Positions 6,157 to 60,517 of a stretch of 60,517 nt of DNA are shown in pieces. Source of the DNA: Candidatus Cloacimonadota bacterium (GTDB lineage Bacteria > Cloacimonadota > Cloacimonadia > Cloacimonadales > TCS61). Made by a program: the position numbers and the translations under genes. The stretch is from contig JAGLPW010000107.1 of NCBI GenBank assembly GCA_023137125.1, positions 1 to 60,517 on the forward strand, read 5' to 3'. The notes beneath the pieces were generated by a model. It was not told the origin of the DNA. It made no database searches and saw only the letters and a program-made list of their open reading frames with translations. Each line of letters starts with the position of its first letter. Positions within the stretch are counted from its first letter, which is position 1.

Positions 6157-7806
6157 TCATTTCAACAACAAACATTTCTTAACTACTTCAGTTTTACCAT
6201 TCACATTTAGTTTGTAAAGATAAACACCTGAACTGACAGAATTTCCAAAATCATCATCACCATTCCAGATAATTGAATGCTCTCCTGTAGGGATTTGGTC
6301 GTTTAAAAGTGATTTTATCTTCTGTCCTTTGATGTTGTATATACTTAGTTCAACTTCAGATTCTTCATGGATTGAGAAAGAAATTGTTGTAGTGGGATTG
6401 AAGGGATTGGGGTAATTAGTTAAAACATTAATTGTCGTAATTATTTCATCTTCAATAGAAGTAATATTATCTATCTTTGCTACAAATATATCAGAATTCC
6501 CACTACTGGTTAGATTAAAGGAACCAAAACTTGCTATTCCTCTATAATATCCTGTTACATACACATTTCCTTCGGCATCTGTGCTTATTGCAAATCCATT
6601 ATCATAAGTACTTCCCCCGGCACTTTCTGCCCAAATCCAATTACCGTTAGAATCCATCTTTGTAACAAAAATATCTCTCTCACCACTGCTGGTTAAATTA
6701 AAAGAGCCAAAACTTGCTGTGCCATGAAAATATCCTGACACGTAGACATTCTCATCAATGTCTGTGCTTATTCCAGATCCACCATCATACTCACTTCCCC
6801 CAGCATTTTTTGCCCAGATCCAATTTCCATTAGGATCCATCTTTGCTACAAAAATATCAGAGACCCCATTGCTGGTTAGATTATAAGAACCAAAATTTGC
6901 TAAATAATCAAAATATCCAGTTACATATACATTCCCATCAGCATCTGTGTTTATTGCTTTTCCTATATCCCCATAACTTCCCCCAGCACCTTCTACCCAG
7001 AGCCAGTTACCATTAGGATCCATCTTTGCTACAAAAATATCATGGTCCCCACTACTGGTTAAATTGAAAGAACCAAAACTTCCTGTTCCTCGGAAAGATC
7101 CAGTTACATATAAATTCCCATCAGCATCTGTGCTTATTCCAGATCCACCATCATACTCACTTCCCCCAGCATTTTTTGCCCAGAGCCAGTTACCATTAGG
7201 ATCCATCTTTGCTACAAATATATCATCATCTCCATTGCTGGGAAGATCAAAAGAACCAAAACTTGCTGTTCCTTCGAAAATTCCTGTTACATATACATTC
7301 CCATTAGAGTCTGTGCATATTGCAATTCCGTATTCTAAATCACTTCCCCCAGCACTTTCTGCCCAGAGCCAGTTACCATTAGGATCCATCTTTGCTACAA
7401 AAATATCATAGGCCCCATTGCTGGTTAGATTAAAAGAACCAAAATTTGCTGAATAATCAAAATACCCAGTTATATATACGTTTCCATCAACGTCTGTGCT
7501 TATTCCAAATCCACAATCATCAGAACTCCCACCGGCATTTTCTACCCAGAGCCAATTACCATTTGCATCCATCTTTGCTACAAAAATATCAGAGCTCCCA
7601 CTGCTGGTTAAGTTAAAAGAACCAAAACTTGCTGTACCAGAGAAATTTCCAGTTACATATACATTCCCATCACCATCTGTGCTTATTCCAGATCCACCAT
7701 CATAATTATTCCCTCCGGCACTTTCAGCCCATAACCATTCAGGTGCTTGGGCAAAAAGTAAAAATGAAAGTGTAATAAATAATAAAATTGAAAGTAGCCT
7801 TTTCAT
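6157..7806 (-). CDS. Secreted beta-propeller-repeat (SBBP-like) protein with T9SS C-terminal sorting domain
   Basis: Start at MKRLLS (GGAGGA RBS). Signal peptide, seven 61-aa NGNWLW..AGG..DGNVYVTG..SFGSFNLTS..DIFVAKMD repeats, and a C-terminal NYPNPFNPTTTISFSI...LLLK. Confidence 0.8.
   Translation of the reverse strand: MKRLLSILLFITLSFLLFAQAPEWLWAESAGGNNYDGGSGISTDGDGNVYVTGNFSGTASFGSFNLTSSGSSDIFVAKMDANGNWLWVENAGGSSDDCGFGISTDVDGNVYITGYFDYSANFGSFNLTSNGAYDIFVAKMDPNGNWLWAESAGGSDLEYGIAICTDSNGNVYVTGIFEGTASFGSFDLPSNGDDDIFVAKMDPNGNWLWAKNAGGSEYDGGSGISTDADGNLYVTGSFRGTGSFGSFNLTSSGDHDIFVAKMDPNGNWLWVEGAGGSYGDIGKAINTDADGNVYVTGYFDYLANFGSYNLTSNGVSDIFVAKMDPNGNWIWAKNAGGSEYDGGSGISTDIDENVYVSGYFHGTASFGSFNLTSSGERDIFVTKMDSNGNWIWAESAGGSTYDNGFAISTDAEGNVYVTGYYRGIASFGSFNLTSSGNSDIFVAKIDNITSIEDEIITTINVLTNYPNPFNPTTTISFSIHEESEVELSIYNIKGQKIKSLLNDQIPTGEHSIIWNGDDDFGNSVSSGVYLYKLNVNGKTEVVKKCLLLK
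6463..7746 (-). repeat. Seven tandem 183-bp coding repeats
   Basis: ccagttaccattaggatccatctttgctacaaa recurs at about 7003, 7186 and 7369, with variants at about 6637, 6820 and 7552. The period is 183 bp. Confidence 0.85.
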
Positions 7807-7828
7807 CTTTTCCTCCAAAATAAATAGC

Positions 7829-7878
7829 TGCTAATGTTTCGCATGTACTGTGAAATAATACTGACACGCTTGTTATGT
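7829..7878 (-). repeat. attC-like site, short type, minus orientation
   Basis: The minus strand reads acataacaagcgtgtcagtattatttcacagtacatgcgaaacattagca, about 80 percent identical to the 50-nt site at 28643-28692. Confidence 0.75.
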
Positions 7879-7899
7879 GAAATAAAACTCATCATTTGA

Positions 7900-8472
7900 T
7901 TATTTAACCTGGATAAGAAGATTTATTTCCAGACCACTAATTGTTTCTTCAAAATTAAGATCACTAAACATCGAAGCACTTAAGCCAATTTTCTTATAAA
8001 TCATTTTGTTTAGAGTTAGTTTTATTGGCAATGTTATGAATTTATCAAATGTAGACTTTGCCGGACCTGCTTTATCTTGGTTGGTCTTTCTTTGAATAAA
8101 ACCAACTCCAGCAAAAGCAGTAAGATTAAAATTTTTAAATGAATAGATTTCTCTACCATATTTCAAAGCAAAAACTAAAAAATCTTTTCCAGTAATATCA
8201 TCATTTATATCCAGTTCTAGTGCAATAGGATTATTATCAAATTTCTTGTAGTTGAATTCGACACATTGGTTTTTCCATTTAACAATTATTCCATAATTTG
8301 GTGATTTATAAAATATTTTATCATAATAATAACTTTTTGGATTGTCTTCAGTATATATTATTGAACGTCCAGCAGTAAATATAATTTGAAAATTACTTCT
8401 TTCTGCCCATAAACTTGATACCAATAATCCCATTATAATTATTATCAGAGTCTTTATTTTTTTCTTTTTCAT
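7900..8472 (-). CDS. Hypothetical secreted protein, possibly a small OM beta-barrel; cassette-borne
   Basis: Signal peptide MKKKKIKTLIIIIMGLLVSSLWA and alternating beta-strand-like pattern. Flanked by the R' half-site at 8509-8531 and the attC-like site at 7829-7878. Confidence 0.55.
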   Translation of the reverse strand: MKKKKIKTLIIIIMGLLVSSLWAERSNFQIIFTAGRSIIYTEDNPKSYYYDKIFYKSPNYGIIVKWKNQCVEFNYKKFDNNPIALELDINDDITGKDFLVFALKYGREIYSFKNFNLTAFAGVGFIQRKTNQDKAGPAKSTFDKFITLPIKLTLNKMIYKKIGLSASMFSDLNFEETISGLEINLLIQVK

Positions 8473-8508
8473 TGTTACTCCATTTTATCGTCTTCTAAGA
8501 TCTAATTC

Positions 8509-8531
8509 ACATAATATTTTACGTGTGCGTC
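8509..8531 (-). repeat. attC-like half-site (3' arm plus R' box only)
   Basis: The minus strand reads gacgcacacg-taaaat-ATTATGT. The following TTATGTGAA is the reverse complement of TTCACATAA at the 7872-7886 box of the next site. No matching 5' arm was found. Confidence 0.45.
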
Positions 8532-8615
8532 GTCCCAAAATATAACTAACAGACAATCCCCGAATCCCCCTCTTCAGGCCAAGAGAGGGATCTTTGGGAT
8601 AAAATATTCATTAGA

Positions 8616-10448
8616 TTACTTCAACATCAACATTTTCTTCATTATTGTTTCATCTTTAGTTGTTAATTTGTAGAAGAATATCCCTGATGACACACTCTTT
8701 TCGTTATTATCCTTGCCATTCCAGACTGTTTCATACGTTCCGGCCAGCTGTTCTCCTTTCACCAGAGTTTTCACGATCTGTCCTTTGATATTGTACACAA
8801 TGAGTTCAATCATACTATCATTTGGTAGAGAATAAGCAATTGTAGTAGATGGATTGAAAGGATTGGGATAATTGGAAGCAACTAAACTGGATGGTAATTC
8901 TGGTATATCTGGTGATGAGGTTCCATCTGAAATTGTTATTGGGTATACATATTGAACAAAATCACCTTCATCACTATAAACATAACTGATCATTCTAGCT
9001 TCTTCACCGGTTTGAATGCCGGATGTAACAGTGAATGATGTTTCATAATAATCACCAGCAATTACAATTTCTTCTTCAAAATAAGGTTCACCAAATTTTG
9101 TATAGTCTACTTCGTAATAGTATCCATTAATAGAATTTGAATAAAAACAATCATATTCTGACTCAAATGCCTTAAATTCACATTGAGAATAATCAATGGA
9201 GGGAAGCTGTCCGGAAATTGAAATATCATCATTATATAATAATATCTCAGGGTTTCCAATAATTGTAATATTCTCATCACGTTGTGGAGAATTCACAAAA
9301 AGCAATGGATCACCTAGTATATTAAATCTCTTGCTATTGATAATACCTGCTCCACTATTTATTTTAGCATCAAGAAGAGCAGCACCCAGATATTGATAAT
9401 CATTTATTATATTCTGGAAAAAAGCAAGAAATAGAACGCTATTACTACCACCACTTGTTGGTGCTCTGGCAGCAATAGAAGCAATTGCCCCACCATCCTC
9501 ATAGGTAAGGAATTGTTCTGCCATACAATCGAACTCCAAAGAACTGAAATCTCCAACACTACCTGAAGCTGCAGTGAATAGAGGAAGATGATCGGTATTT
9601 TGTAATAATTGAAGCTGGGTAGAAACCCTGAAATAGTCCTCATCACCTAGTACATCTTCGTTTCCATGACCAATAAAATGCCATATCAATTGCCCGTCAT
9701 TTACTTTATCAATAACGTCTTGTGCTGCTTCTGGTTTATTCCCATTTGTATTCATTTCATATTCTATACCCAATACACGATCTATCCAAGCTGCATCAGA
9801 TAATGATTCTGCTAATTCTTGTGATCTGGCTGTATGATTCAAACCACTTGAGTAAGATAATCCCTCTAAAGTTCCTCCTTTATGCTCATCATCTGCAACT
9901 ATGAGCATTTTATTTCGCCACCAATCAAGTGTTGGACTTGTGATATACTGAATATTTCTATTGATGATTAGCTCTAATTGTTCTATATTCTGAGCAGGAA
10001 ATCTACCGATAGGGATATCGGGATAGTAATCTGTATCCAGCATGACAAATTCATCATCTGTATACCCAATTACAACTATTCTGTTTTTATCATTGGGAGT
10101 ATTCCATTCTTCAGTTCCACTTCCCATTATAAGAACAGAACTATCCATCCAGATAGATGGGTCATCGAAAAATTCAATGAGATAATCTAGAATCGCTTCC
10201 GGATATGCTACTCCTCCGCTCATTTGATCAAATATGTCTTGTTGATCTACAACAGAACGTACGATTTGAAATTCATTCCAATAGAAATCTGCTAATAGAT
10301 TTGCCTGAGTTAAGAATTCTTCTGGTGCGATAATAATGTGCTGCCCATCACGAGCTCTTTCAATGTGTTTTTGTTGTTTTGAATTTATCGCCTTCAATCC
10401 TATTAATACTAATATCATCATTCCGATTAGTGTAATACGCTTTGCCAT
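8616..10448 (-). CDS. Peptidase C25 (gingipain)-like secreted protein with T9SS C-terminal domain
   Basis: HFIGHGNEDVLG ... LPLFTAASGSVGDF ... NILGDP resembles the gingipain catalytic region. C-terminal NYPNPFNPSTTIAYSL...MLMLK. Confidence 0.65.
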   Translation of the reverse strand: MAKRITLIGMMILVLIGLKAINSKQQKHIERARDGQHIIIAPEEFLTQANLLADFYWNEFQIVRSVVDQQDIFDQMSGGVAYPEAILDYLIEFFDDPSIWMDSSVLIMGSGTEEWNTPNDKNRIVVIGYTDDEFVMLDTDYYPDIPIGRFPAQNIEQLELIINRNIQYITSPTLDWWRNKMLIVADDEHKGGTLEGLSYSSGLNHTARSQELAESLSDAAWIDRVLGIEYEMNTNGNKPEAAQDVIDKVNDGQLIWHFIGHGNEDVLGDEDYFRVSTQLQLLQNTDHLPLFTAASGSVGDFSSLEFDCMAEQFLTYEDGGAIASIAARAPTSGGSNSVLFLAFFQNIINDYQYLGAALLDAKINSGAGIINSKRFNILGDPLLFVNSPQRDENITIIGNPEILLYNDDISISGQLPSIDYSQCEFKAFESEYDCFYSNSINGYYYEVDYTKFGEPYFEEEIVIAGDYYETSFTVTSGIQTGEEARMISYVYSDEGDFVQYVYPITISDGTSSPDIPELPSSLVASNYPNPFNPSTTIAYSLPNDSMIELIVYNIKGQIVKTLVKGEQLAGTYETVWNGKDNNEKSVSSGIFFYKLTTKDETIMKKMLMLK

Positions 10449-10565
10449 AAAAAACCACCTTTATTAATTTTTTTGCAAAGATAATGAAGCTATCAATATA
10501 GTTTAGCAGCTCCCTTAATAATTTATTGTAAAAATTAAAAATATTAGCAATTTCATTTGATGTAC

Positions 10566-12050
10566 TTATTCTAATAATAGCATTTTTTTGTGCAAGCTTT
10601 TTTTACCGGTGATGAGTGTATATAAATAAACACCTGAACTTACTCGTTTATTATTATAATCTCTTCCATCCCAAATAACTGAATGTTGTCCAACTGATAA
10701 TTGATCGTTAAGAAGTGTTATGATTCTTTGTCCTTTGATGTTGGAAATGGATAATTCTACTTTACTTTCTTCTGGAATTGAGAAAGAGATTGTTGTTGTT
10801 GGGTTGAATGGATTTGGATAAGCTGATTTCAGATCAGTACAATCTATTGTTTCTACAAAATCATTATTTAATGCTGTATAATTCCCAGTTGTAAAATGCC
10901 ACATTCCGCTCCAAAGTGATTCATTTTCAGATGTAGATTTTATTCTCCACCAATACTCTGTATCAGGAAGCAATTCCGGAGAAAAAGTGAATGTATTATT
11001 CGAAGTATAAAGCCCATCACCAATGTAAATGAGATTATCATTTGAAATTCCCAAATAAAGCTCATACATAGCACCGGATTCTGCACCTTGCCAAGATAAC
11101 TCACTATTGTAAGCAACATTCTCCGCATGTCTTGTTGGAAAAGGATAACATGCTACATTTAAGTTTGCTGTAAAAGGATAATTAAGAGTACAGAATCCTC
11201 GACTCTCAAGAATTGGAATATGAACTTCCAATGCTTCTTGGGATATTGGATTAGTAAATATCCCAAGATATTGGATATACAAATAATCATCCAAGCCTAG
11301 ATTGGTGTTCTCCACTAACGGAAAAATATCTGTAATTTGGTTATCCTCTAGATGCAAATTATTTAAGTTCGTTAAATTAGAAATTGCTGAGATGTCGGTG
11401 ATCTGGTTGCTCTCTAGATGCAAAATATTCAAACTCAGCATACTGGAAATCGCTGAGATGTCTATGACCTGATTGTTGTCTAATCTAAATAATGTTAAAT
11501 TTGTAAGTCCGGAAAGTGCAGATATATCACTGATTTGATTATTGTACAAACTCAAAATCGTTAAATATGTAAGTCCGGAAAGTGAGATTATGTCACTGAT
11601 TTGATTATTGTGTAAACTCAAATATGTTAAATTTGTCAGTTCGGAAAGTGCGGTTAAATCACTGATCTGATTACCCAATAATTCCAAACGTGTTAAATTT
11701 ATCAGACCAGTAAGTGCATTTATTTCACTGATCTGATTACTCCACAAATCCAAACGCGTTAAATTCGATAGCCCGGACAGAACAGATATGTCACTGATCT
11801 GATTAATATGTAAATCCAACCATATTAAATTCGTTAAGTACTGAGCACCTTCGATAGATATAATATTTGCATTGCTAGCATTCAGAGTCCCGGTTAAACC
11901 ATTCAAATCGGCAATGGTAGGTTCATACTCTGGGGGTTGGCCAAGCGCTTCATTAATTTCTTCTCGGAAATTATCATCCGGTATAATTTGAGCAAAAAGC
12001 CCAAATCCCATAATACTAATAATAACTATTAAAAATAATTTATTACTCAT
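10566..12050 (-). CDS. Leucine-rich-repeat (internalin-like) secreted protein with T9SS C-terminal domain
   Basis: Start at MSNKLF (GGAGGA RBS). About eight 22-aa LTNLTxLxLxxNQISDISxLSG repeats and a C-terminal AYPNPFNPTTTISFSI...MLLLE. Confidence 0.8.
   Translation of the reverse strand: MSNKLFLIVIISIMGFGLFAQIIPDDNFREEINEALGQPPEYEPTIADLNGLTGTLNASNANIISIEGAQYLTNLIWLDLHINQISDISVLSGLSNLTRLDLWSNQISEINALTGLINLTRLELLGNQISDLTALSELTNLTYLSLHNNQISDIISLSGLTYLTILSLYNNQISDISALSGLTNLTLFRLDNNQVIDISAISSMLSLNILHLESNQITDISAISNLTNLNNLHLEDNQITDIFPLVENTNLGLDDYLYIQYLGIFTNPISQEALEVHIPILESRGFCTLNYPFTANLNVACYPFPTRHAENVAYNSELSWQGAESGAMYELYLGISNDNLIYIGDGLYTSNNTFTFSPELLPDTEYWWRIKSTSENESLWSGMWHFTTGNYTALNNDFVETIDCTDLKSAYPNPFNPTTTISFSIPEESKVELSISNIKGQRIITLLNDQLSVGQHSVIWDGRDYNNKRVSSGVYLYTLITGKKSLHKKMLLLE
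11310..11837 (-). repeat. 66-bp periodic LRR coding repeats
   Basis: Recurrent gtcactgatttgattattgt / tcactgatctgatta units with a 66-bp period. Confidence 0.7.
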
Positions 12051-12080
12051 TCTTCCTCCAAACTCATTATTCAATTATAC

Positions 12081-12139
12081 AGATAATGGTTGGCTGCTGC
12101 TCCGCTCTTCTTGCTTGGCTGTGGAGCTGTGTGTTAGTG
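12081..12139 (-). repeat. attC-like site, divergent short variant, minus orientation
   Basis: The minus strand reads CACTAAC-aca-cagctcc...ggagcagcag-ccaacc-ATTATCT. It has the same AAC...ccaaNc-ATTA frame as the plus-strand sites and starts 10 nt after the stop of the 12150-14306 gene. Confidence 0.5.
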
Positions 12140-12149
12140 GCATCTTCCC

Positions 12150-14333: not shown

Positions 14334-15650
14334 TTAAAACATATTACGGAAATAATACCTACAACCGAAATAAAATCTCGCACGTTCTTCCCGTTTCAAA
14401 TCAGTTAAATTATAATCATCATATTCGTATAAATCTTTGTCTACATATTTCAATTCAGAACTTATTTGACAATACAATGAAAAATTATCCTCAATATAAT
14501 AATCAATTGATGTGCTTAATTTAACATTAAATTTATAACCATCAATATCCTCGTACCAGTAATAATTATAATTGAAAACGACATTAGAATTCCATCTAAT
14601 GCGATCAGTTACTTCAAATAAGTGACTATTTGAGAAATCAAATATTAAATTTGAATCTTCCGTTGAATCTTCTGTAAAATACTTTCCATAGGATAATGTT
14701 GAAGAAACTCCAATCTGATACTTAAGATTAACATTATTGTAATAATTGAAACTAATACTAGGACCAAGATAAAGCTCCTTGATTATATTGTCATCTCGTT
14801 CATTTATATAACTATGCCATAAATTAATACCGAGAAGGATTTCATTCCCTTGACGACGCGTGATATACTCTTGCATTACTTCAGTTAGATATAAATTCTC
14901 AGATATATTTAGAGCACTAAACTCATTACCCAAGATTGGGGATATCTCTTTCCAGAAATACTTTTCATGTCTATTATATACACTTGCAAATTGATGATAT
15001 TGTGCGAATTTATCTGCAAGTTCTTTTATCTGGTTTTCTGAAAGAGTCATTCCTTTGTTTAAAGCTTCCACTCTTTCCCTTAATCTTAATGCTCTGAAGA
15101 TTGGACTCACATCTCGTATTCTTCCAAAACCTATTCCCAAAAATGAAGTTGAATTCATGCGACGTTGAATGCGATCTTGATCATCTGGAGAAGCGTTTAT
15201 TTCACGGTAGCTTAATTGCGAAGTTAATGAAAAATTCATGAAAAAATCATCTTTAATATAAAAGTTATAATTCCCATGTATTCTTGGAAATAGTTCATAA
15301 CTTCTAGCTATCTCATCTATCTCATGTTCTTCATCCTGATCTTTAGAATAACCGAAATGAGTGTTAACAACAATATTAAAAGCATAAGAATTGTTATCTG
15401 ATTCAAAAGTTCGTGTATAATCAGGTGAAATATTGAGCGAATAATCTTCTCTTATTCGCTTATAAGCTGTTTCTCTTCTTAGAAAATTGCTTCTACCTGA
15501 AAAAGCGACACTGCTAATCGAATATCCCCAAGATGGAAGCTTATATTCCTTAATAAGATCATGATCTTCAATTTTGAAACCAACACTACTCCAACAATAA
15601 ACAAATGATGCTATCAACATGATAAATGCAGTAATAATAATTTTCTTCAA
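14334..15650 (-). CDS. Hypothetical secreted protein, possible OM beta-barrel
   Basis: Signal peptide. Y/F/N-rich with alternating pattern. C-terminus ...RYYFRNMF ends in an aromatic residue. Confidence 0.5.
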   Translation of the reverse strand: MKKIIITAFIMLIASFVYCWSSVGFKIEDHDLIKEYKLPSWGYSISSVAFSGRSNFLRRETAYKRIREDYSLNISPDYTRTFESDNNSYAFNIVVNTHFGYSKDQDEEHEIDEIARSYELFPRIHGNYNFYIKDDFFMNFSLTSQLSYREINASPDDQDRIQRRMNSTSFLGIGFGRIRDVSPIFRALRLRERVEALNKGMTLSENQIKELADKFAQYHQFASVYNRHEKYFWKEISPILGNEFSALNISENLYLTEVMQEYITRRQGNEILLGINLWHSYINERDDNIIKELYLGPSISFNYYNNVNLKYQIGVSSTLSYGKYFTEDSTEDSNLIFDFSNSHLFEVTDRIRWNSNVVFNYNYYWYEDIDGYKFNVKLSTSIDYYIEDNFSLYCQISSELKYVDKDLYEYDDYNLTDLKREERARFYFGCRYYFRNMF

Positions 15651-25044: not shown

Positions 25045-25528
25045 AAAGCACTCCTTTGTTAAAATAGTTAGGCAGCAATGAAGATTAAAAGAAGTGCAAG
25101 TTTATTATAAGAGAGTCAGAAGTATATAAGCATATACAAACTTTACACTTCCTTATCTACAAAGGAAGAAATTTCCCTATCTTTTATTTTGTCAATCATT
25201 TCATATAAATTTCATATGAATTATAGTTTGTAAAAGTACTTTTAAGGTCAATGTGAATATGGGAAAGTTCTCTAAAATAAAAGAAAGGTATTTCTCTTTT
25301 CAGAGGGCTGTCAGGAACATATATCTATTGGCAGGGGGTGTCCCCCTTCTTTGGGGGCTTCCAATTCACTAATAGATATCTTAATTCATAATATTAGAGA
25401 ACTAATCTCAGTAACCGATTCATTAAGAACTATCAAATACTATTATTCTTAACACTAAAATGATTTAAAGTAAATATCTTTTATAATTTGCTTAATAAGA
25501 ACAAAAGGAAAACTCATGAAATTAATTT

Positions 25529-25633
25529 ATGGCGTCATAACTCCCAATTTAAAAGTTATGACGCCATAAAATCTCGTAACTATAGGTTGGTTATGCGCCA
25601 CAAAAAAATAGACGCAGCGTACATATGTTACAG
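25529..25633 (+). other. Conserved cassette-array leader A (hairpin, conserved blocks and GTTACAG box)
   Basis: About 85 percent identical to 59611-59714 in three blocks: atggcgYcataactcccaatttaaaagttatgacg, gtaactataggttggttatgcgc and cgcagcgtRcatatgttacagg. Confidence 0.65.
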
Positions 25634-25994
25634 GCAGTTGGGAACATTAAGTCCGGTGTAGAAGTAACTTCGGGTTGAAACTGATTTTCTAAAACTGGAC
25701 AATTTTTGGAAGCCGACAAAAGTCGGAAAATAAGTTTGTATAACGAAAAGGATAACGGAATTTGCGGTGGAAGTTCAGGATAAGCAAATTTTTTGCCAAT
25801 TCGCCGGAAACTACGACCTGTACGTTCAGTGAAAGTTCCAGCTCAAAGTTTTGAAGTTAATTAGAAGATATAAATCGTGGGTTACCTTTACAGGAATTCA
25901 GAGGTGCAATTGTCACAAAATTTGCAAGTGCTCCTCCACTGTTGTTTGGGCAAATTCCATTCCATTTTCTTATTTGTCCGGTGGAAAGAACTGC

Positions 25995-26122
25995 CTGTAA
26001 CAGGCGTATCTGCGGTAGTGCTGGTTTGTTTGTTTTGGTTTGAATCTAACGATTCAAACTTTGGTTAGTTTGCTTAACGCTGGGATCGTAACCGATCCCG
26101 CCGCATACGCAAAACATTATAC
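25995..26122 (+). repeat. attC-like site 0 (128 nt)
   Basis: CTGTAAC-agg-cgtatCTgcgg ... tttgaatctaacgattcaaa ... gggatcgtaaccgatccc-gccgcatacg-caaaac-ATTATAC. Confidence 0.8.
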
Positions 26123-26138
26123 GTTTCAGGGAGTGTAA

Positions 26139-27248
26139 GTGAAAATAAAATTATTGTTAATAATAGTTTTAAGTCTTTATATAGGATTTTTATATTGTTC
26201 TCTTGAAATTACTGAAATCACTGAAACATACAATAATGGAGCAACAAAAAGAGAAGTATTTTATTTAGGTAATAAAAACACGGAAACTATTTATAGAAAA
26301 AATGGGTCAATACATTTCGTAAAGAGGTATATGGGAGGATATTCAAAAATTGGAACATGGATAGAGTACAATAAAGATGAGCGTGCAGTTAAAGCAGGGA
26401 ATTTTATTGTTGGTGAAAAAGAAGATTCTTTTTTAAAAGATATAAAAGATGGATATTACAATGAGTTTTTCGATAAAGATAAACTCTCTTTAACTACTTT
26501 TTTCTTTGAAAATAAAATTAATGGTGTATGGTTAGAATACTATTCAAATGGAAATTTAAAGTGTAAAGGTATTGTTATAGATGGATACTTTGAAGAATTG
26601 GAACATTATAATGAAGATGGCGTAAAACTTAATGTTGAATTAGAAAATGGAAACTATTCTCACACCATATATTTCAATGATATTGGTAAATTTGAATATT
26701 ATTTTTCACGTAAACTAGATTCTGAAAGTTCAATAATTGAAAGTATGGATTTTGGTTATTATGAAAATGGACATTTACGTAGCGTCGAACAAAAAAATGA
26801 ACATACAGAAATTGATCTTACTTTCTGGGATAATGCAAATATTAAACAACTATATAATACCAATTTGAAGTCTGGTATTTCAAACTTAATAAAGTTTCAT
26901 GAAAATGGAAGAGTAAAAGTAAGTGGTTTTTCTCGAGACAATTCTAATATTGGTAAAATATATGAATACTTTGAATCAGGCAAGATAAAGCAAATTGTTA
27001 AATTTCCTAACGAATCAAAAGACCCCTTTGATCTGGAAGAAATTTCAGAATATTACGAAAATGGTAATCTTAAGTATAAACTTTGTTATGTTGAAAAAAA
27101 AGTTTACAAATCTTTTTCATATTATGCTAAAAATGGTGAATTGATTTTTGAATCATCTGAGCAAGATGATATTGAAAAACTAGTTAGAGTATGGTCTGGT
27201 GGAGCTACATACACAATTGAATTTGACGAAACAAAAGTCGGAAAATGA
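26139..27248 (+). CDS. Secreted MORN-variant / YwqK-like repeat protein (cassette 1)
   Basis: GTG start with AGGGAG RBS and a signal peptide. Repeats such as INGVWLEYYSNGNLKCKG, ISEYYENGNLKYK and GKIYEYFESGKIKQ. Confidence 0.7.
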   Translation: MKIKLLLIIVLSLYIGFLYCSLEITEITETYNNGATKREVFYLGNKNTETIYRKNGSIHFVKRYMGGYSKIGTWIEYNKDERAVKAGNFIVGEKEDSFLKDIKDGYYNEFFDKDKLSLTTFFFENKINGVWLEYYSNGNLKCKGIVIDGYFEELEHYNEDGVKLNVELENGNYSHTIYFNDIGKFEYYFSRKLDSESSIIESMDFGYYENGHLRSVEQKNEHTEIDLTFWDNANIKQLYNTNLKSGISNLIKFHENGRVKVSGFSRDNSNIGKIYEYFESGKIKQIVKFPNESKDPFDLEEISEYYENGNLKYKLCYVEKKVYKSFSYYAKNGELIFESSEQDDIEKLVRVWSGGATYTIEFDETKVGK

Positions 27249-27251
27249 AAC

Positions 27252-27377
27252 GTATAACAAGCGTATCTGCGGGTGGGTTCATTATTCTTTCCAGCTTGAA
27301 TCTTACGATTCAAACCTTGTTTTATTTGTTTCGGGGCGTGATCGTTCCGATCCCGCCGCACACGCAAAACATTAGCA
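27252..27377 (+). repeat. attC-like site 1 (126 nt)
   Basis: GTATAAC-aa-gcgtatctgcgg ... ttgaatcttacgattcaa ... gatcgttccgatc-ccgccgcacacg-caaaac-ATTAGCA. Confidence 0.8.
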
Positions 27378-27463
27378 ACGGCGGGTAACATAAGTAGAAA
27401 CATAATAGAAGTTAGATATATGTGATTCATAAAAAAAGATTATTAAACAATTGGAGGGAAAAA

Positions 27464-28633
27464 ATGAAACGTTTTTTTGTAGTAATTACATTTTTTTTAA
27501 TATCTTTAAATGTATTCTCACAAATTCCAGATAATATTATTAGAGATGATGAAATTTTGGTAGAACAATTCGTAGATGATTGGCAGGCTGAGAATTGGAT
27601 ATACGATGAACATCATATTTACGAGTATAATGATGAAAATTTGCTGTCAGAATATACAATAATGAAATTCATAGATGATGAATGGCACAATAGTAAATTA
27701 CGGACTTATACCTACGATCCAGATGGATTATTAACAGAAATGATAGTTTTCAATACTTCTTATGGAGAATGGATTAATTACCAAAAATATACTTATGCTT
27801 ATTTCGAAAACAATCTGTTAAGTGAATATATTTACAGTATGTGGGAAAATGATTTATGGGAAGCAAGATATCGACACCAGTATATTTATAATGATAATCA
27901 ATTATTAATAAAGCATTATAGGGATGAATGGACAGGCTCAGGATGGCATGCAGAATATGGTAATTGGTTTTCATATAATTCGAATGAAGAATTAATTGAG
28001 GATTTAGCAAAAAGGTGGATTGGGTACTGGACAAATAATAGTCGTCATGAATATAGTTACAATTCTCATGGGGATTGTGAGACTTATCTTTTTTTCATTT
28101 GGGATGATGAATTCTATGAATGGTGGTTAATGAATGATTATTTCTATGAATACGAATATGAAAATAACATAAAGATTACAAAAACTACTTCATATTATTC
28201 AAATTATGATAATAAAGAAGTTTACTCTTATAATATCAATGGTAATCTTATAGAAACAATACAACAGGATTGGTCTTCAGGAACATGGATAAATGACGCA
28301 CGTATTTCTTCAATTTATGAAACTACACATGTTTATGAATATGAAATTGTAAATCAAAAGAATACAATCAATGTTTTTCCAAATCCATTCAATCCATTAA
28401 CAACAATAGAGTTTTCTATCTACAACGATTCAAAAGTTGAACTTACAATATACAACATAAAAGGCCAAAAAATTAAAACCTTAGCTCAAAATGAATTTAC
28501 AAAAGGTTTACATTCAATTATTTGGAATGGTGATGATGAATTGAATAATCCTGTTAGTTCAGGAACCTATTTCTACAAATTAAATATAAATGGTAAAACT
28601 GAAGCAGTCAAGAAGTGTTTGCTTTTAAAATGA
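27464..28633 (+). CDS. Hypothetical secreted W/Y/E-rich protein with T9SS C-terminal domain (cassette 2)
   Basis: Start taken at MKRFFVV (GGAGGG RBS); the listed ORF starts at GTG 27422. C-terminal VFPNPFNPLTTIEFSI...CLLLK. Confidence 0.7.
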   Translation: MKRFFVVITFFLISLNVFSQIPDNIIRDDEILVEQFVDDWQAENWIYDEHHIYEYNDENLLSEYTIMKFIDDEWHNSKLRTYTYDPDGLLTEMIVFNTSYGEWINYQKYTYAYFENNLLSEYIYSMWENDLWEARYRHQYIYNDNQLLIKHYRDEWTGSGWHAEYGNWFSYNSNEELIEDLAKRWIGYWTNNSRHEYSYNSHGDCETYLFFIWDDEFYEWWLMNDYFYEYEYENNIKITKTTSYYSNYDNKEVYSYNINGNLIETIQQDWSSGTWINDARISSIYETTHVYEYEIVNQKNTINVFPNPFNPLTTIEFSIYNDSKVELTIYNIKGQKIKTLAQNEFTKGLHSIIWNGDDELNNPVSSGTYFYKLNINGKTEAVKKCLLLK

Positions 28634-28642
28634 TAGAGATGT

Positions 28643-28692
28643 TGCTAACAAGCGTGTCAGTTTAGTTTCACTGCACACGCAGAACATTAGCA
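28643..28692 (+). repeat. attC-like site 2 (50 nt, short type)
   Basis: TGCTAAC-aag-cgtgtcag-tttagtttca-ctgcacacg-cagaac-ATTAGCA. Confidence 0.8.
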
Positions 28693-28719
28693 GAAATAGT
28701 GTAATAATCAGGAGATATT

Positions 28720-29478
28720 ATGATTGATTTCCAGCAAAAAATGCTTGAAGAACTCAACAAAGATTACAAGTTCTATTTAGGTGAACATCATATAGAATTA
28801 TTTTTACAGAAATATAAAACTCCAGAATTGACTAAAGATGATGTTCTTAATTTATTAGGTGACTTGCTATCAAGAAATTTAATTTACACTAATATTTGTA
28901 ATCGTATGTCAAATAATTGGTTTTATGTTTTATCTCCAAAAGGTAAAATATCATTAAATTCAGGTGATTATGACCCTTACAATGAAACAAGTTATATTAC
29001 ACATCTTGAAAGTGAAATTCCAAATATATCCGAAGATGTTTTAATTTATACTAAAGAATCAATAAAAAGTTTTAACAATCAATGTTATCTTGCAAGTGCA
29101 GTAATGATTGGTGTTGCTTCTGAATGTGCATTTAACGAAATGCTTTTAAACTTTTCATCTTGGCTAAAAGCTGGTAAAGAAAAAACAAAATTCTTAGGTT
29201 TTCAAAATAATTCGAGGATTATGTTTATAAACAAATTCATAGATTTTAGAAAATCAATACAAGTCAGAAAAACACAATTACCTAAGGATTTATCTGACAA
29301 TATGGCTTTAACTTTTGATGCAATATTAGATTTATTGCGAATTTATCGAAATGAGTCTGGTCATCCAACAGGAAAATTTATATCTCACAATAGTGCATTT
29401 CTAAACCTAAATATGTTTGCTCGATACTTACAGAAACTTTATTTGTTTAGGGATTTTTTTTATGTTAATAAAGAATAA
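28720..29478 (+). CDS. Hypothetical protein with HEPN-like Rx4H motif (cassette 3)
   Basis: AGGAG RBS. All-alpha-looking sequence. C-terminal LLRIYRNESGHPTG contains R-x4-H with N after the R. Confidence 0.5.
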   Translation: MIDFQQKMLEELNKDYKFYLGEHHIELFLQKYKTPELTKDDVLNLLGDLLSRNLIYTNICNRMSNNWFYVLSPKGKISLNSGDYDPYNETSYITHLESEIPNISEDVLIYTKESIKSFNNQCYLASAVMIGVASECAFNEMLLNFSSWLKAGKEKTKFLGFQNNSRIMFINKFIDFRKSIQVRKTQLPKDLSDNMALTFDAILDLLRIYRNESGHPTGKFISHNSAFLNLNMFARYLQKLYLFRDFFYVNKE

Positions 29479-29490
29479 TAGAATGACTTC

Positions 29491-29614
29491 TGCTAACAAA
29501 CGTGTCAGCGGTTCAGTCTGTCGGTGCTCTTTGCCTGAATCGTTCCGATTCAGGGTTTAGCGGTTTGTACGGGCTGAATCATTCTGATTCCACCGCACAC
29601 GCCAAACATTAGCT
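29491..29614 (+). repeat. attC-like site 3 (124 nt)
   Basis: TGCTAAC-aaa-cgtgtCAgcgg ... cctgaatcgttccgattcagg ... ggctgaatcattctgattcc-accgcacacg-ccaaac-ATTAGCT. Confidence 0.8.
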
Positions 29615-29647
29615 GAAATTATGTAATTGTTTAAAGATGGTGAATTA

Positions 29648-31606
29648 ATGAATAGAATTAAGTTTTATAGTCCTTCTGATATGTCTGTGGGACACAATCT
29701 TGAGCGAGCATTTGAAATTATAAAAAGTTTTGATTTTAATAGAGATGATTATGGTATAAATGAAATCATTGAGTTTTATAATATTAGCTGTTATATTGAT
29801 AATAACTTATTTTTAACGAGCTGGTCAAAAAGTGACTTAGAAGAAATTAAGATAGTTACAAAACAATATAAGATACTTCTAAGTAAAATTTACAATAATA
29901 TTAGTGATGATAATTTAAGTAATCTATTTAAGAATGTAGAAAGAAATTATACTGATAACTTTTGGGAACTATTTAATAAATATAAGGTTTATAAAAATAT
30001 AACAGAGAAAGAATTCGAAATAATATTAAATGATCTGAACCCTTCATTATTTGAGCTTCTCCAAAACAAACATTTAATAAACTATTTTGAAGTCTCTATC
30101 AGAAACTACATATTGTCTGATTCTAAGAATGCTGAAATATTATTAGATAAGTATGAAGTAAAAAATATGTTTGGAGAAACAAAAATATATTTCCCAAATA
30201 AACTTACTAATAAAGATAAAGAATTAGTAATTCATCAATATATTGATAGTGAGAATGCAAATCTAAATTATCTTAGACTAATTGAGAATATACAGAGCAG
30301 AAAAGATTTATTGGAAATTTCAGACAGAACTCGACTAAAGGCAAAAAAAGTAATTCAAATAAAAAATGAAGAGTTTTTTAAGATAAATGCGGGAATGAAA
30401 TTTGGCATTTCTGTACAATTTCGAGAAGATCAGGAAATTGAACTTGTAGAAAAGAAGGTTGGCAGTATCCTTAAATATTCATATAGTTCAAAGTGGATAC
30501 AAACAAACAATGATTATAGTACTTTGCTCAATAATTTTGTTCATTTGTTCAATTATACAGATTTACAAATGCGCATATCTTTGGTTAGTAAGCCAAATGA
30601 ACTTGGTTTATTTGAAAAGCATATAGGTCTCCAATCTCAGAGCGCATACGTAACAGGTTTAGTTTACTCTCAAAAAAACAATTTATCTATTCTTCAATTA
30701 ATTGGTTATTCTCATCAATTAGAAATAATGGATATTAGCATTGAAAAATTAATTGAGTGGTTTTTTAAAGAGTATCTTCTAAATGAATTCAATATAAAAA
30801 ACTATAGAATAACATTGCCTTCAAATAACTCGAAATTTTTAGAAAAATGTAGAGCAATCCTCCCCGAAATTGAAAGTGTTTTAAAGCAATTCAATTTATT
30901 TATTGAGGATGGTGAGATAAATCAGGAATTGTTTCAAATGTCTTCTGGTCATCTTCTTTTTAGTAATTGTAAAAGCTTAATTGATAAAAAATATATTTAC
31001 CCTCGTGAAGGTGATTTTGTACGAATTTCTTATTACTTTTTTTCAGACCAATGTATGTTAGCTTACGTAAAAAGAATAGAAGATAAATATTCCAATTTTT
31101 TTGAACTTCTTATAAAAGAGTCTATTTATTTTGAAGATTATCCTGAATATCTTAAACCCGATCTAAAATGGTTACTAGAGAACGAATATATAACAATAAA
31201 TGAAAACAAAGAATTAATGTTTTCTAATTTTCTACAAATATTCATTTTAAAAGATTTATATGATAATGAAGTTATTAATTATTGGAATAAATCATCAAAA
31301 TATCAAATTGAAATTGATAAATTATTAAAAAATGGCTTATTTAAATCAGAAAGTTCTTTGTTTTCTAAACCTGAACAAGATTATTTTAATTATCATTTAA
31401 ATAAATCCAAGTTCAACAATTCGTTGGATTTAAGAAATATGTATAGTCACGGCACTCAGCCAAATGATGAAGATGATAATGAAAAACACCAAAACCACTA
31501 TTTGATTTTTCTAAAACTCTTTATTTTATTAATCATCAAAATTAATGATGAGTGTTGCATAGTAAATAACCCTAACTATTTAAAAAAAGATTCAAGTAAT
31601 GAGTAA
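29648..31606 (+). CDS. Large hypothetical protein with C-terminal HEPN-like Rx4H motif (cassette 4)
   Basis: Start taken at MNRIKFY (GGTGA upstream); the listed ORF starts at TTG 29627. Near the C-terminus, SLDLRNMYSHGTQP contains R-x4-H. Confidence 0.5.
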   Translation: MNRIKFYSPSDMSVGHNLERAFEIIKSFDFNRDDYGINEIIEFYNISCYIDNNLFLTSWSKSDLEEIKIVTKQYKILLSKIYNNISDDNLSNLFKNVERNYTDNFWELFNKYKVYKNITEKEFEIILNDLNPSLFELLQNKHLINYFEVSIRNYILSDSKNAEILLDKYEVKNMFGETKIYFPNKLTNKDKELVIHQYIDSENANLNYLRLIENIQSRKDLLEISDRTRLKAKKVIQIKNEEFFKINAGMKFGISVQFREDQEIELVEKKVGSILKYSYSSKWIQTNNDYSTLLNNFVHLFNYTDLQMRISLVSKPNELGLFEKHIGLQSQSAYVTGLVYSQKNNLSILQLIGYSHQLEIMDISIEKLIEWFFKEYLLNEFNIKNYRITLPSNNSKFLEKCRAILPEIESVLKQFNLFIEDGEINQELFQMSSGHLLFSNCKSLIDKKYIYPREGDFVRISYYFFSDQCMLAYVKRIEDKYSNFFELLIKESIYFEDYPEYLKPDLKWLLENEYITINENKELMFSNFLQIFILKDLYDNEVINYWNKSSKYQIEIDKLLKNGLFKSESSLFSKPEQDYFNYHLNKSKFNNSLDLRNMYSHGTQPNDEDDNEKHQNHYLIFLKLFILLIIKINDECCIVNNPNYLKKDSSNE

Positions 31607-31632
31607 GGTTAATTTCTTATATAATAAAATTC

Positions 31633-31716
31633 AGCTAACAAACGTGTCAGCGGGTAAGCTGGGTGGTTTGTTTGGGCTGAATCGTACCGATTCAGGGTTT
31701 GGTCGGTTTGTTTTGG
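31633..31716 (+). repeat. attC-like site 4, truncated (5' arm and first internal hairpin only)
   Basis: AGCTAAC-aaa-cgtgtcagcgg ... ggctgaatcgtaccgattcagg-gtttggtcggtttg. Homology to site 3 then stops, and there is no ccgcacacg...ATTA arm. Confidence 0.65.
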
Positions 31717-31828
31717 ACGTGATTGTATTCTTAAAGAGAATATATAAAGGCAAGGACAGAAAATATTCTGTTTTTGTTGTTTTTGTATAGATTTCACAAC
31801 GATTTTCACAACGATTATAGAATTACTA

Positions 31829-31873
31829 CAAAAAAAATATGGCACAACTCATCATCTGTGAATAAGTTATGCC
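31829..31873 (-). terminator. Rho-independent terminator of the tRNA operon
   Basis: The minus strand reads GGCATAACTTATTCACAGATGATGAGTTGTGCC, then ATATTTTTTTTG, immediately after tRNA-His. Confidence 0.6.
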
Positions 31874-31881
31874 AATAACTA

Positions 31882-31957
31882 TGGGGTGGATGATGGGATT
31901 TGAACCCACAACGCCCGGAACCACAATCCGGTGCTCTACCGTTGAACTACACCCACC
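31882..31957 (-). tRNA. tRNA-His (GTG)
   Basis: The reverse complement reads GGTGGGTGTAGTTCAACGGTAGAGCACCGGATTGTGGTTCCGGGCGTTGTGGGTTCAAATCCCATCATCCACCCCA. Cloverleaf folds by hand, G(-1):C73 is present, and CCA is encoded. Confidence 0.9.
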
Positions 31958-31967
31958 ATAAAAAAAA

Positions 31968-32044
31968 TGGCACGCCAAAAGGGATTCGAACCCCTGACCT
32001 ACGGATTAGAAATCCGTTGCTCTATCCAACTGAGCTATTGGCGC
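31968..32044 (-). tRNA. tRNA-Arg (TCT)
   Basis: The reverse complement reads GCGCCAATAGCTCAGTTGGATAGAGCAACGGATTTCTAATCCGT...GGTTCGAATCCC...GGCGTGCCA. Anticodon loop TTTCTAA. Confidence 0.9.
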
Positions 32045-32055
32045 ATCCTAAAATT

Positions 32056-32132
32056 TGGTAGCGGCGCAGGGACTTGAACCCCGGACACTCGGATTATGAT
32101 TCCGATGCTCTAACCAACTGAGCTACGCCGCC
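32056..32132 (-). tRNA. tRNA with CAT anticodon (elongator Met or Ile2/lysidine)
   Basis: The reverse complement reads GGCGGCGTAGCTCAGTTGGTTAGAGCATCGGAATCATAATCCGA...GGTTCAAGTCCC...CGCCGCTACCA. The acceptor stem is fully paired. Confidence 0.85.
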
Positions 32133-32256
32133 AATTTTGTATTAAGGATTAGATTTTGGCAATGATCTTCAAATTACTAATTAAAAATTCTACCAAACTG
32201 CCCCTTTACACATTAAATAATTATTTATATAAAGATCAATTAAGACCATTAAAAAA

Positions 32257-32333
<77 letters not shown>

Positions 32334-59539: not shown

Positions 59540-59610
59540 TTTTGAAATTAAATGAGAAAATATATAATAAAAAGCCCTTCAGATTAAATTGATTTAGATG
59601 ATGATAATTA

Positions 59611-59714
59611 ATGGCGCCATAACTCCCAATTTAAAAGTTATGACGAACCTTTTGGTGTAACTATAGGTTGGTTATGCGCACCTTTTTGGTGGGCGCAGCG
59701 TGCATATGTTACAG
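59611..59714 (+). other. Conserved cassette-array leader B
   Basis: Same three conserved blocks as 25529-25633. Ends in catatG-TTACAGG. Confidence 0.65.
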
Positions 59715-59743
59715 GTAATTAAATATAAAAAATAGGAGATTTT

Positions 59744-60445: not shown

Positions 60446-60453
60446 GAAACTAC

Positions 60454-60517
60454 CTGTAACAAGCGTGTCAGCGGTTGGGTCAGTTGGTGTTTTTCGTCTG
60501 AATCGTTCCGATTCAGG
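60454..60517 (+). repeat. attC-like site (5' part; cut by window end)
   Basis: CTGTAAC-aag-cgtgtcagcgg-ttgggtcagttggtg...tctgaatcgttccgattcagg. About 80 percent identical to the first 64 nt of site 3. Confidence 0.75.

Follow-up and report, generated by a model that had tools for sequence, protein, structure and literature searches.

Integron-type gene-cassette arrays in a Cloacimonadota chromosome and a candidate integrase without the I2 helix

We analyzed a 60,517-nucleotide (nt) stretch of the chromosome of a Candidatus Cloacimonadota bacterium (contig JAGLPW010000107.1 of GenBank assembly GCA_023137125.1; hereafter the window, with position 1 as its first letter), the homologs of whose RNase G gene place it in the Cloacimonadota. 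Positions 25628-31746 of the plus strand hold what is, judged from its sequence, almost certainly a genuine five-cassette array of the integron type (array A1). An initial annotation of this DNA had described such an array beside a tRNA-His gene and called it CALIN-type (cluster of attC sites lacking an integron integrase) or served in trans, and that label proved apt, in that the geometry of the cassettes, their co-orientation, the architecture of the attC sites and the absence of a recombinase were all verified. The annotation had described the repeat in A1, and copies also occur in a cassette at 8514..7835, at 12143..12080 and in an array from 59709, so that the window holds three such arrays: A1, A2 (∼12143..7828, minus strand) and A3 (59709 to the end of the window, plus strand). 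The GC content of the array is 0.287, compared with 0.33 for the window. The cassettes of A1, each with the length of the match between its start and its own site, and the attC sites, with their scores in the covariance model R1, are as follows.

25628-26116, plus strand: cassette 1, attC 25991-26123; 12-nt complementarity; no open reading frame (ORF) of more than 63 amino acids
26117-27371, plus strand: cassette 2, ORF 26139-27248 (369 amino acids, weak MORN-variant repeats in Pfam), attC 27248-27378; 12-nt complementarity
27372-28686, plus strand: cassette 3, ORF 27422/27464-28633 with a C-terminal sorting domain of the type IX secretion system (T9SS; Por_Secre_tail in Pfam/NCBIfam); 8-nt complementarity
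28687-29608, plus strand: cassette 4, ORF 28720-29478 (252 amino acids), attC 29487-29615; 9-nt complementarity
29609-31746, plus strand: cassette 5, ORF 29627/29648-31606, terminal attC truncated; 9-nt complementarity
25991-26123, plus strand: long attC, 110.8 bits
27248-27378, plus strand: long attC, 106.8 bits
28639-28693, plus strand: short attC, 35.5 bits, E 4e-8
29487-29615, plus strand: long attC, 109.7 bits
31629-31746, plus strand: truncated attC, 5′ half only (L′/R′ arm missing), 32.1 bits

R1 was built from 13 long sites of other contigs (L002, L003, L007, L018 and L022), with no window site among them, and its structure (R stem, L stem with a 2-nt bulge, two inner hairpins) was drawn by hand on the long sites. 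When both strands of the entire window were scanned without filters, R1 matched all five sites of A1 on the plus strand (E-values from 1e-30 to 5e-7) at the places given by the initial annotation; only the end of the truncated fifth site had to be moved, from 31716 to ∼31746. Apart from the short site of A2 and the fragment in A3 listed below, the remaining matches in the window all had E-values above 0.3. The repeat is not scattered, in that all significant matches lie at the 3′ ends of genes and in gene orientation. A pattern for the 5′ arm occurs seven times in the window against 0.08 expected and one for the 3′ arm five times against 0.15 expected, and the attC pattern had no match in viral contigs. 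A scan of the window with Rfam at its gathering thresholds returned four tRNAs only, Rfam having no attC family.

Each site opens with an R″ box that ends in TAAC and continues, after a spacer left unpaired, into an L stem bearing a bulge of 2 nt. A variable region, the L′ arm, a second spacer and an R′ box reading A/TTA follow (the slash marking the crossover position here and below). The variable region is either a loop of 3-10 nt or ∼80 nt with two conserved hairpins, and the lengths of the sites are 55-63 or 128-133 nt. This is the layout of attC sites, namely an imperfect palindrome of the form R″-L″...L′-R′ with an unpaired spacer, extrahelical bases and a variable terminal structure. 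The motif given by the initial annotation was recovered, and reads TAAC, an A-rich spacer of 3 nt, the arm CGTRTC(N)GCGG, variable sequence, the arm CCGCAYACG, a CAAAAC-like spacer of 6 nt and ATTA, except that its GCGG/CCGC extension, which had been described as general, is absent from the short sites. The AAC of R″ is invariant, and R′ is ATT in 22 of 22 Cloacimonadota-type sites; GTT, the triplet expected at this position, is found in the array heads described below and in the attC sites of more distant loci.

Comparative evidence for the structure came from the 13 sites outside the window, in which 90.3% of the alignment cells at paired positions were paired, compared with 20-36% when the 3′ partners were slid. 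Six pairs (24 cells) showed two-sided changes, and the covariation score of 0.198, against 0.126 in shuffled alignments, was equalled in 0 of 500 shuffles. The two inner mini-hairpins that had been noticed in the window are likewise real, and their pairs covary in this alignment: G:C is replaced by A:U at 95:107 and 99:103, and C:G by U:A at 55:62 and 50:67.

The initial annotation had regarded as decisive that the first bases of each unit are the reverse complement of the 5′ box of that unit's own downstream site. When every unit start (first T at 25628, 26117, 27372, 28687 and 29609) was compared with the reverse complement of every 5′ box, the perfect matches from TT between a start and its own R″ were 12, 12, 8, 9 and 9 nt long, whereas those between a start and the box of another unit reached at most 7 nt. 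The rule also holds in four other contigs (L007, L018, L022 and L098), with matches of 9-21 nt. Because each start pairs with its own R″, each unit was therefore once a circle, the site of which was opened next to TT as it was joined to the array. The unit starts thus show, far beyond chance, the circular-permutation geometry of integron cassettes.

Four of the five cassettes carry an ORF that is co-oriented with the sites, as had been proposed for all of them; cassette 1 has no credible ORF. This cassette has patches in common with another ORF-less cassette (L007, 16194-16558), and it may be a non-coding cassette, such as one supplying an RNA or a promoter. The cassette 4 protein had no match in Pfam, PADLOC or NCBIfam, and the ORF of cassette 5 is a full-length match to the PADLOC candidate anti-phage protein PDC-S56 (E 5e-232). 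A strain contig (L095) departs from the window inside the cassette 5 ORF, at 30492 and not at a junction, and encodes a 343-amino-acid product instead. Complete integrons have a Pc promoter upstream of the array that drives the cassettes; a scan for sigma-70-type promoters showed no enrichment (38 found, 41.5 expected), with a tool that does not cover the promoter type of the phylum.

Arrays A1 and A3 both open with a conserved head of ∼100 nt, in which GTTATG-N6 direct repeats are followed by CATATG/TTA.

25526-25570, plus strand: A1 head, part 1, 17-bp perfect inverted repeat TTTATGGCGTCATAACT / AGTTATGACGCCATAAA, the right arm being the first GTTATG-N6 copy
25576-25627, plus strand: A1 head, part 2, attI-like core GTAACTATAGGTTGGTTATGCGCC...CGCAGCGTACATATG, with the crossover inferred between G25627 and T25628
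59607-59708, plus strand: A3 head, with an imperfect inverted repeat, GTTATG repeats and an attI-like core; crossover G59708/T59709

The two heads are 79% identical over 114 nt, and after the inverted repeat both read GTAACTATAGGTTGGTTATGCGC, a variable stretch and CGCAGCGTRCATATG/TTA. A 23-mer of the A1 head recurs identically at 59657-59679, where none is expected by chance; a scan for exact matches to it in one genome per species found only one Cloacimonadota metagenome-assembled genome, with two loci. The inverted repeat of A1, which is conserved in A3 and in L001/L002, is strongly structured (DNA fold of −17.3 kcal/mol, z −9.9), and the head cores are not significantly structured (DNA fold z 0.1 and −1.8). 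What the 14 heads that we tabulated (of 20 listed) have in common is GTTAT(T)G plus ∼6 bases, in two or three direct copies. The six-base tail differs between lineages but agrees between the copies of a given head. The left arm needed for the inverted repeat is present in about half of the heads, and the arm sequence of A1 varies between loci in step with the second copy of the repeat. By sequence, then, the head has the position of an attI site (the head of the array) and its crossover (G/TT), and we interpret it as a putative attI-type recombination site with accessory binding repeats. The idea that the hairpin of the head is simply the terminator of a recombinase gene was set aside, in that the left arm is missing in L021/L022 and the T-run is absent in several loci, whereas the direct repeats are constant.

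The heads also suggest a link between the window and a recombinase. As the initial annotation had stated, no tyrosine recombinase is encoded in any frame of the 60 kb (best tblastn E-value 0.15), and the window frames contain no part of one beyond its last codons before the head. However, in at least 12 related contigs the head is fused to the 3′ end of a gene for a recombinase that lacks the I2 helix of integron integrases. It lies ∼100 nt 3′ of the recombinase stop codon in L007, L018, L020, L022 and L012-L021, and in L002 and L003 it stands immediately behind the last 100-140 codons of a tyrosine recombinase gene. In the window, the ∼30 nt before the A3 head match the 3′ end of the recombinase gene (..GATGATGATAATTAA), and in L001/L002 the same bases end the recombinase frame. 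Homology between head copies starts just 10-45 nt before the recombinase stop codon, and heads without a recombinase stand at unrelated chromosomal sites, both within the window (25526-25627 and 59607-59708) and between L001 (2094-2223) and L002 (3063-3192). In L003 (1-10000), the array head adjoins a defence island with BrxC/PglY-like, GmrSD, SIR2 and kinase genes. The sole head-motif match in viral contigs (AACTATAGKTTRGTTATG) lies at the end of an IMG/VR viral contig (L100, 4147-4164, minus strand).

In L007, the head follows a full-length recombinase of 303 amino acids (P0126), downstream of which are cassettes of the same site family. The catalytic set of P0126 is complete: R (GLRLSE), K (GGKGKKDR), H and R (HTLRH), H (LGH) and Y (IYTH). 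The enzyme scored 220 bits, in two stretches, with the integron integrase model TIGR02249 (cut-off 265) and 212.8 bits with the XerA model NF040815 (cut-off 220), and it fell far below the cut-offs of the XerC and XerD models. Its best sequence match in the PDB is VchIntIA (2a3v, E 1e-43; residues 36-205 aligned with 15-183 and 223-297 with 244-318), and in this alignment 17 residues of P0126 stand opposite 60 of IntIA (184-243, the region of the IntI-specific domain), leaving it 43 residues short. The AlphaFold model of P0126 (pLDDT, the predicted local distance difference test, of 83) has only short strands and no helix between helices H193-206 and H223-236, and its top fold matches are XerA (5hxy, 5e-16) and IntIA (5e-15). 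P0126 is therefore an intermediate between IntI and Xer that lacks I2.

To characterize the neighborhood of this family, we used 80 loci obtained by a metagenome scan with P0126, whose recombinases are 44-81% identical relatives and which were chosen regardless of what lies downstream. R1-type attC sites lie downstream of the recombinase in L007, L018, L020 and L022. A strict chain detector accepted a run of cassettes only if two or more were linked, each L stem was perfect over 6 bp and each xTT start matched the ..AAC box of its own unit for 8 nt or longer. It found co-oriented chains downstream of the recombinase in 15 loci (28 linked junctions); only 26 loci have 2.5 kb or more of sequence beyond the gene. 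By comparison, reversed sequence gave two loci and shuffled sequences gave 0-2. Within the window the same detector found A1 only, and a detector based on a 9-nt match alone was swamped by chance matches in AT-rich DNA. The first cassettes start ∼50-140 nt after the recombinase stop codon, and the distant loci carry textbook attC sites of the form GCCTAAC...GTTAGGC. No I2-type integrase was seen in 107 loci, though these had not been selected to find one.

Two further observations concern this recombinase family. A cultivated member of the Bacteroidota, Pontibacter (L011, 7001-9420; GCA_014773225.1), encodes an I2-less recombinase of 297 amino acids, behind which lie cassettes whose sites read CTAAC...GTTAG. 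One of these cassettes is a HigB/helix-turn-helix pair, and the arrangement could serve as an experimental model. In addition, C-terminal recombinase fragments of 100-135 amino acids adjoin heads or attC sites in L002 (2671-3090), L003 (10001-10309) and L106 (8001-8342). The fragments (P0001-P0004, P0013 and P0030) have in common an in-frame insert of 12 amino acids, PI[RH]FFK[TI]TGQA, just before the catalytic Tyr, which is absent from the full-length enzymes; they are 58-82% identical and their reading frame is still open.

In one clade, a paralog always precedes the active enzyme: directly upstream of its gene, L007 (8781-9824), L013, L014, L015, L017, L021, L022 and L024 encode a 347-amino-acid paralog that is 59-72% conserved between loci, and L023 has a partial copy, cut by the end of the contig. 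In the paralog the first catalytic Arg is replaced by Ser or Thr, and HxLRH is replaced by TILKN. Its N-terminal extension of 75 amino acids had no match in Pfam; a single active enzyme with the same extension is found in L018, L029 and L083. Speculatively, a mixed tetramer of active enzyme and paralog could allow one strand exchange only, a limit that the I2 helix imposes in canonical integrons, but this idea cannot be general because L018, L029 and L083 have no such paralog.

Exchange of DNA exactly at the predicted junction, one of the checks proposed with the initial annotation, was observed in other related contigs. In the pairs L015 and L016, L017 (identical to L019) and L020, and L001 and L002, the sequences are identical up to CATATGTTA (CATATG/TTA) and unrelated beyond it. 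The identity runs through the recombinase gene and the head in the first two pairs, and L001 and L002 share 130 bp that are the head itself. The strain contigs of the A1 locus, to which we return below, are the part of this check that gave no difference.

The adjacency to tRNA-His is present as described but looks incidental. The tRNA-His gene (31882-31956, minus strand; found by ARAGORN and Rfam) is a synteny boundary and not evidently a target, and it stands outside the recombination system, because homology resumes exactly there in relatives without the array. These relatives, with RNase G 96%, 88% and 70% identical, have no array at the syntenic position, and no attC was found at this position next to their tRNA-His. 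L103, L101 and L105 are homologous to the window from 31874-31882 onward, with other genes upstream of that point. The tRNA cluster His-Arg-Met-Met (31874-32333, minus strand), followed by RNase G, L21 and L27, is kept in the relatives, and the DNA upstream of tRNA-His varies among them (a CBS gene, Lon, cobW or the array), making this a variable spot at a tRNA gene. Between the truncated attC and tRNA-His, two terminator-like hairpins face each other, at 31749-31778 (plus strand) and 31874..31840 (minus strand).

The other two arrays of the window comprise the following features.

8514..7835, minus strand: intact cassette of A2, ORF 8472..7900 (190 amino acids, no family match), short attC 7882..7828
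7882..7828, minus strand: short attC of A2, R1 33.7 bits, E 1.5e-7
8512..8533, minus strand: orphan attC 3′ half GACGACGCACACGTAAAATATTA, the upstream junction of the A2 cassette; 3′ arm pattern with two mismatches
12143..12080, minus strand: second-type attC, ..CCACTAAC ACA CAGCTCCAC .. GGAGCAGCAG CCAACC ATTATCTG, between two T9SS protein genes
59709-60517, plus strand: cassette 1 of A3, ORF 59744-60445 (233 amino acids), attC from 60450, cut by the end of the window; 9-nt complementarity
60478-60514, plus strand: attC fragment cut by the end of the window, R1 15.9 bits, E 0.029

The start of the A2 cassette, TTATGTGAA, pairs with TTCACATAA in the R″ of its own short site (5′ box TTCACATAAC). 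The orphan half-site gave only a weak full-model match to R1 (8620..8508, 10.1 bits). The second-type attC scored 10.9 bits with R1 (E 0.85) and resembles a site of L007 at ∼15430-15510; it is probably decayed, because a search for a partner cassette start found none. A search for an attC after the ORF at 6157..7818 also found none. Between 6157 and 14306 on the minus strand, the window encodes a run of five proteins, one of them small. The four large proteins carry T9SS sorting domains and are a C25 peptidase, a leucine-rich repeat protein whose gene has 66-nt repeats (11326-11787), an SBBP propeller containing six tandem repeats of 183 nt (6469-7683) and a PMP-repeat protein. The 6-14 kb region resembles an older array of genes for secreted proteins in decay, and the interspersion of T9SS genes with attC remnants across 6157-14306 suggests that secreted-protein genes are stocked as cassettes. 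A3 can be followed beyond the window in a strain contig (L098), which has three cassettes with sites and then core genes; the complete attC of A3 cassette 1 is found there at 12219-12347 (111 bits), and further sites are at 13281-13410 and 15089-15143.

Overall, we consider it likely that the best explanation of these data is one in which the cassette arrays are real, the window holds their passive parts and the enzyme acts in trans. That the I2-less recombinase is the cognate integrase is suggested by the related loci and is, on balance, the position we favor, while a single-strand mechanism has arguments of about equal weight for and against it. In the mechanism that we propose, a copy of a P0126-type enzyme encoded elsewhere in the genome would excise cassettes by attC × attC recombination, and the excised cassettes would insert at G/TT of the head; the attC would probably be used as a folded single strand. 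Because recombinases heading such arrays in relatives are not canonical IntI, the term integron applies here to how the locus works and not to strict family membership. Two features of a complete integron are absent, namely an adjacent I2-bearing integrase (I2 comprising ∼35 residues near patch III) and GTT as the triplet of R′. Provided that the sites count as attC, A1 has the composition of a CALIN (at least two attC sites within ∼4 kb and no integrase nearby), with five sites in 6.1 kb.

Several points weigh against this explanation. R′ reads ATT (A/TT) instead of the conserved GTT (G/TT). The 60-kb window has no recombinase, and a canonical IntI elsewhere in the genome is possible. The strain contigs of the A1 locus have an identical cassette order, with no cassette-level polymorphism seen among them. 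Bottom-strand folding, which the initial annotation had put forward as a check, returned the R stem, the unpaired spacer and the L stem with its bulge for the short site at 28639-28693, but not the R and L stems of the long sites, whose minimum-free-energy DNA folds give the inner hairpins instead. There was also no energy bias between top and bottom strands in 22 sites (mean difference −0.46 kcal/mol, the bottom strand being more stable in 13 of 22). Because the folds of the long sites are non-canonical and lack a strand bias, the case for single-strand use is made from covariation and analogy. From the side of the enzyme, the I2 helix is held to be necessary both for attC recombination and for blocking second-strand exchange (PMC7790495), an additional domain has been reported as necessary for IntI activity (Messier and Roy 2001, as cited in PMC9668308), and recombinases without intI_Cterm beside attC sites were considered not to be IntI by Cury et al. 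(2016), who examined proteins with PF00589 and without intI_Cterm next to attC sites in complete genomes and found few (PMC4889954). Finally, the recombinase stands alone in the lineages of L018, L029 and L083, which lack the altered paralog.

These points give weight to other readings to different degrees. One is that A1 is an ordinary CALIN, served by a canonical I2-bearing integrase located elsewhere or in another organism, with the I2-less recombinase belonging to a different element or being a bystander. The window without a recombinase, an attC architecture that is canonical in nearly every respect, the view of I2 as essential (PMC7790495) and the finding that CALINs are common, half of them in genomes with IntI elsewhere (PMC4889954), are all consistent with this reading. 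We nevertheless regard it as unlikely, given that the head found at both window arrays is the one fused to the 3′ end of the I2-less gene in relatives, that remnants of the last recombinase codons precede the window heads, that arrays follow the I2-less family far more often than they do in controls and that the 107 loci showed no I2-type integrase, though they had not been chosen for that purpose. Some of the same facts bear on the possibility that the arrays are fossils, built by the recombinase, the gene for which was then deleted from each head, and now fixed and no longer mobilised. The loss of the recombinase at both heads, the truncation of the last A1 attC, the half-sites and the partnerless orphan site of A2 and the single cassette order in strain contigs are what decay would leave behind. 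However, the complete sites of A1 score 107-111 bits, as good as the 112-142 bits in enzyme-bearing arrays, the pairing of each start with its own site is still perfect, the low GC content (0.287 versus 0.33) suggests imported DNA and the array is absent from the syntenic position in the 96%, 88% and 70% relatives, so that we find fossil status doubtful, though not implausible.

The remaining readings concern the nature of the sites. In classical double-strand recombination of the Xer type, duplex core sites with TAAC..GTTA-type boxes would undergo two strand exchanges, and the palindrome would be a by-product. The Xer/XerA fold and length of the enzyme and its lack of the I2 helix would suit such a reaction, as would heads that resemble arrays of duplex binding sites and single-strand folds that, for long sites and heads, are weak or non-canonical and without strand bias. 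On the other hand, both the cassette-specific complementarity between R″ and the start (8-21 nt) and the compensatory changes in the L stem and the inner hairpins are predicted by selection for intramolecular pairing and would be dispensable for duplex sites, and the L stem has a conserved asymmetric bulge reminiscent of the extrahelical bases by which a strand is chosen; we therefore consider the double-strand reading rather improbable. A different proposal, that the sites are extragenic palindromes of the REP (repetitive extragenic palindromic)/BIME (bacterial interspersed mosaic element) or MITE (miniature inverted-repeat transposable element) kind and unrelated to site-specific recombination, would explain why palindromes of ∼55 or 130 nt recur between genes at three places of the window. 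It can hardly be correct, however, when the significant copies all sit at gene 3′ ends in gene orientation, each copy pairs with the start of its own unit only, units are swapped exactly at the junction in relatives, the repeat family is tied to a recombinase gene and there are neither target-site duplications nor terminal inverted repeats of the MITE kind.

The explanation that we prefer, real arrays served in trans by an I2-less enzyme, can be set against known systems. Sedentary chromosomal integrons and CALINs (PMC4889954) likewise have tandem, co-oriented and mostly promoter-less cassettes, palindromic R″/L″/L′/R′ sites with a spacer, a bulge and a variable terminal structure, and starts complementary to their own R″; they also resemble the present arrays in having sites that are homogeneous per lineage, defence-type and secreted cargo and no integrase nearby. 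The arrays described here differ from CALINs in the A/TTA of R′ in place of G/TT and in their attI-like head with recombinase remnants. They differ also in that the recombinase of relatives has no IntI-specific domain, and even 'complete' loci would still be reported as CALINs. In Treponema denticola-type integrons, intI is co-oriented with the cassettes and attI lies directly downstream of intI. The order of recombinase, attI within ∼100 nt of the stop codon and same-strand cassettes, with insertion at G/TT, is shared with these and with archaeal integrons (PMC9668308). The IntIs of both carry the additional domain around patch III that P0126-type enzymes lack. Unlike them, the enzyme here has a 75-amino-acid N-terminal extension or a separate altered paralog. 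The attI1 site of class 1 integrons has accessory direct repeats, DR1 and DR2, upstream of its L-R core. The heads, if they are attI sites, resemble attI1 in that several repeats with GTTA cores, similar to integrase boxes, precede the crossover. They are not similar to attI1 in sequence, and they often have an inverted repeat of 12-18 bp right after the recombinase stop codon.

A precedent for an Xer-type enzyme acting on folded single-stranded DNA is the CTX phage, the single-stranded DNA of which hijacks XerC/XerD-dif using only XerC (PMC7790495). By analogy, an I2-less Xer-type enzyme may act on a folded single-strand hairpin with one exchange and one inactive partner, but XerC/XerD are housekeeping enzymes with one dif site, whereas the enzyme here is an accessory protein that occurs in several copies or in degraded form and is associated with cassette arrays. 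XerA (NF040815; 5hxy) is the best structural match of P0126 and is like it in length, fold and the lack of an extra domain; in contrast, P0126 is below the cut-off of that family, scores slightly higher on the integron integrase model and has cassette arrays and not dif as its context.

The I2 helix has been presented as the innovation by which integrases recombine folded single strands while avoiding a lethal second exchange (PMC7790495), integron integrases are defined by their additional domain (PMC9668308; PMC7790495) and the standard detection tool requires the IntI-specific domain (PMC4889954). In the literature, of which our coverage was incomplete, we found no I2-less integron integrase and no integrons of Cloacimonadota, and an I2-less integrase-like system is probably a novelty. 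At least 15 metagenomic loci, unrelated to one another, have a member of the family ∼100 nt upstream of attC arrays in the same orientation, and we tentatively suggest, with somewhat less than even confidence, that this widespread group of IntI/Xer intermediates is the actual integrase for the arrays described here and for many others. If this is true, it would constitute a second lineage of integron-like systems, one able to recombine attC sites in the absence of the structural element by which integron recombination is thought to be defined and made possible, and many 'CALINs' of uncultivated phyla would be complete elements missed by detection rules, with the window arrays among the products. 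If the system is active, it would provide a natural test of how strand choice and a single exchange are achieved without I2, for which the altered partner subunit is one candidate; it would bear on whether I2 was gained once or lost, and part of the 'unexpected abundance of CALINs' would be reclassified. For the Cloacimonadota, the arrays indicate that cassette arrays serve these bacteria as a store of secreted T9SS proteins and of a candidate anti-phage gene.

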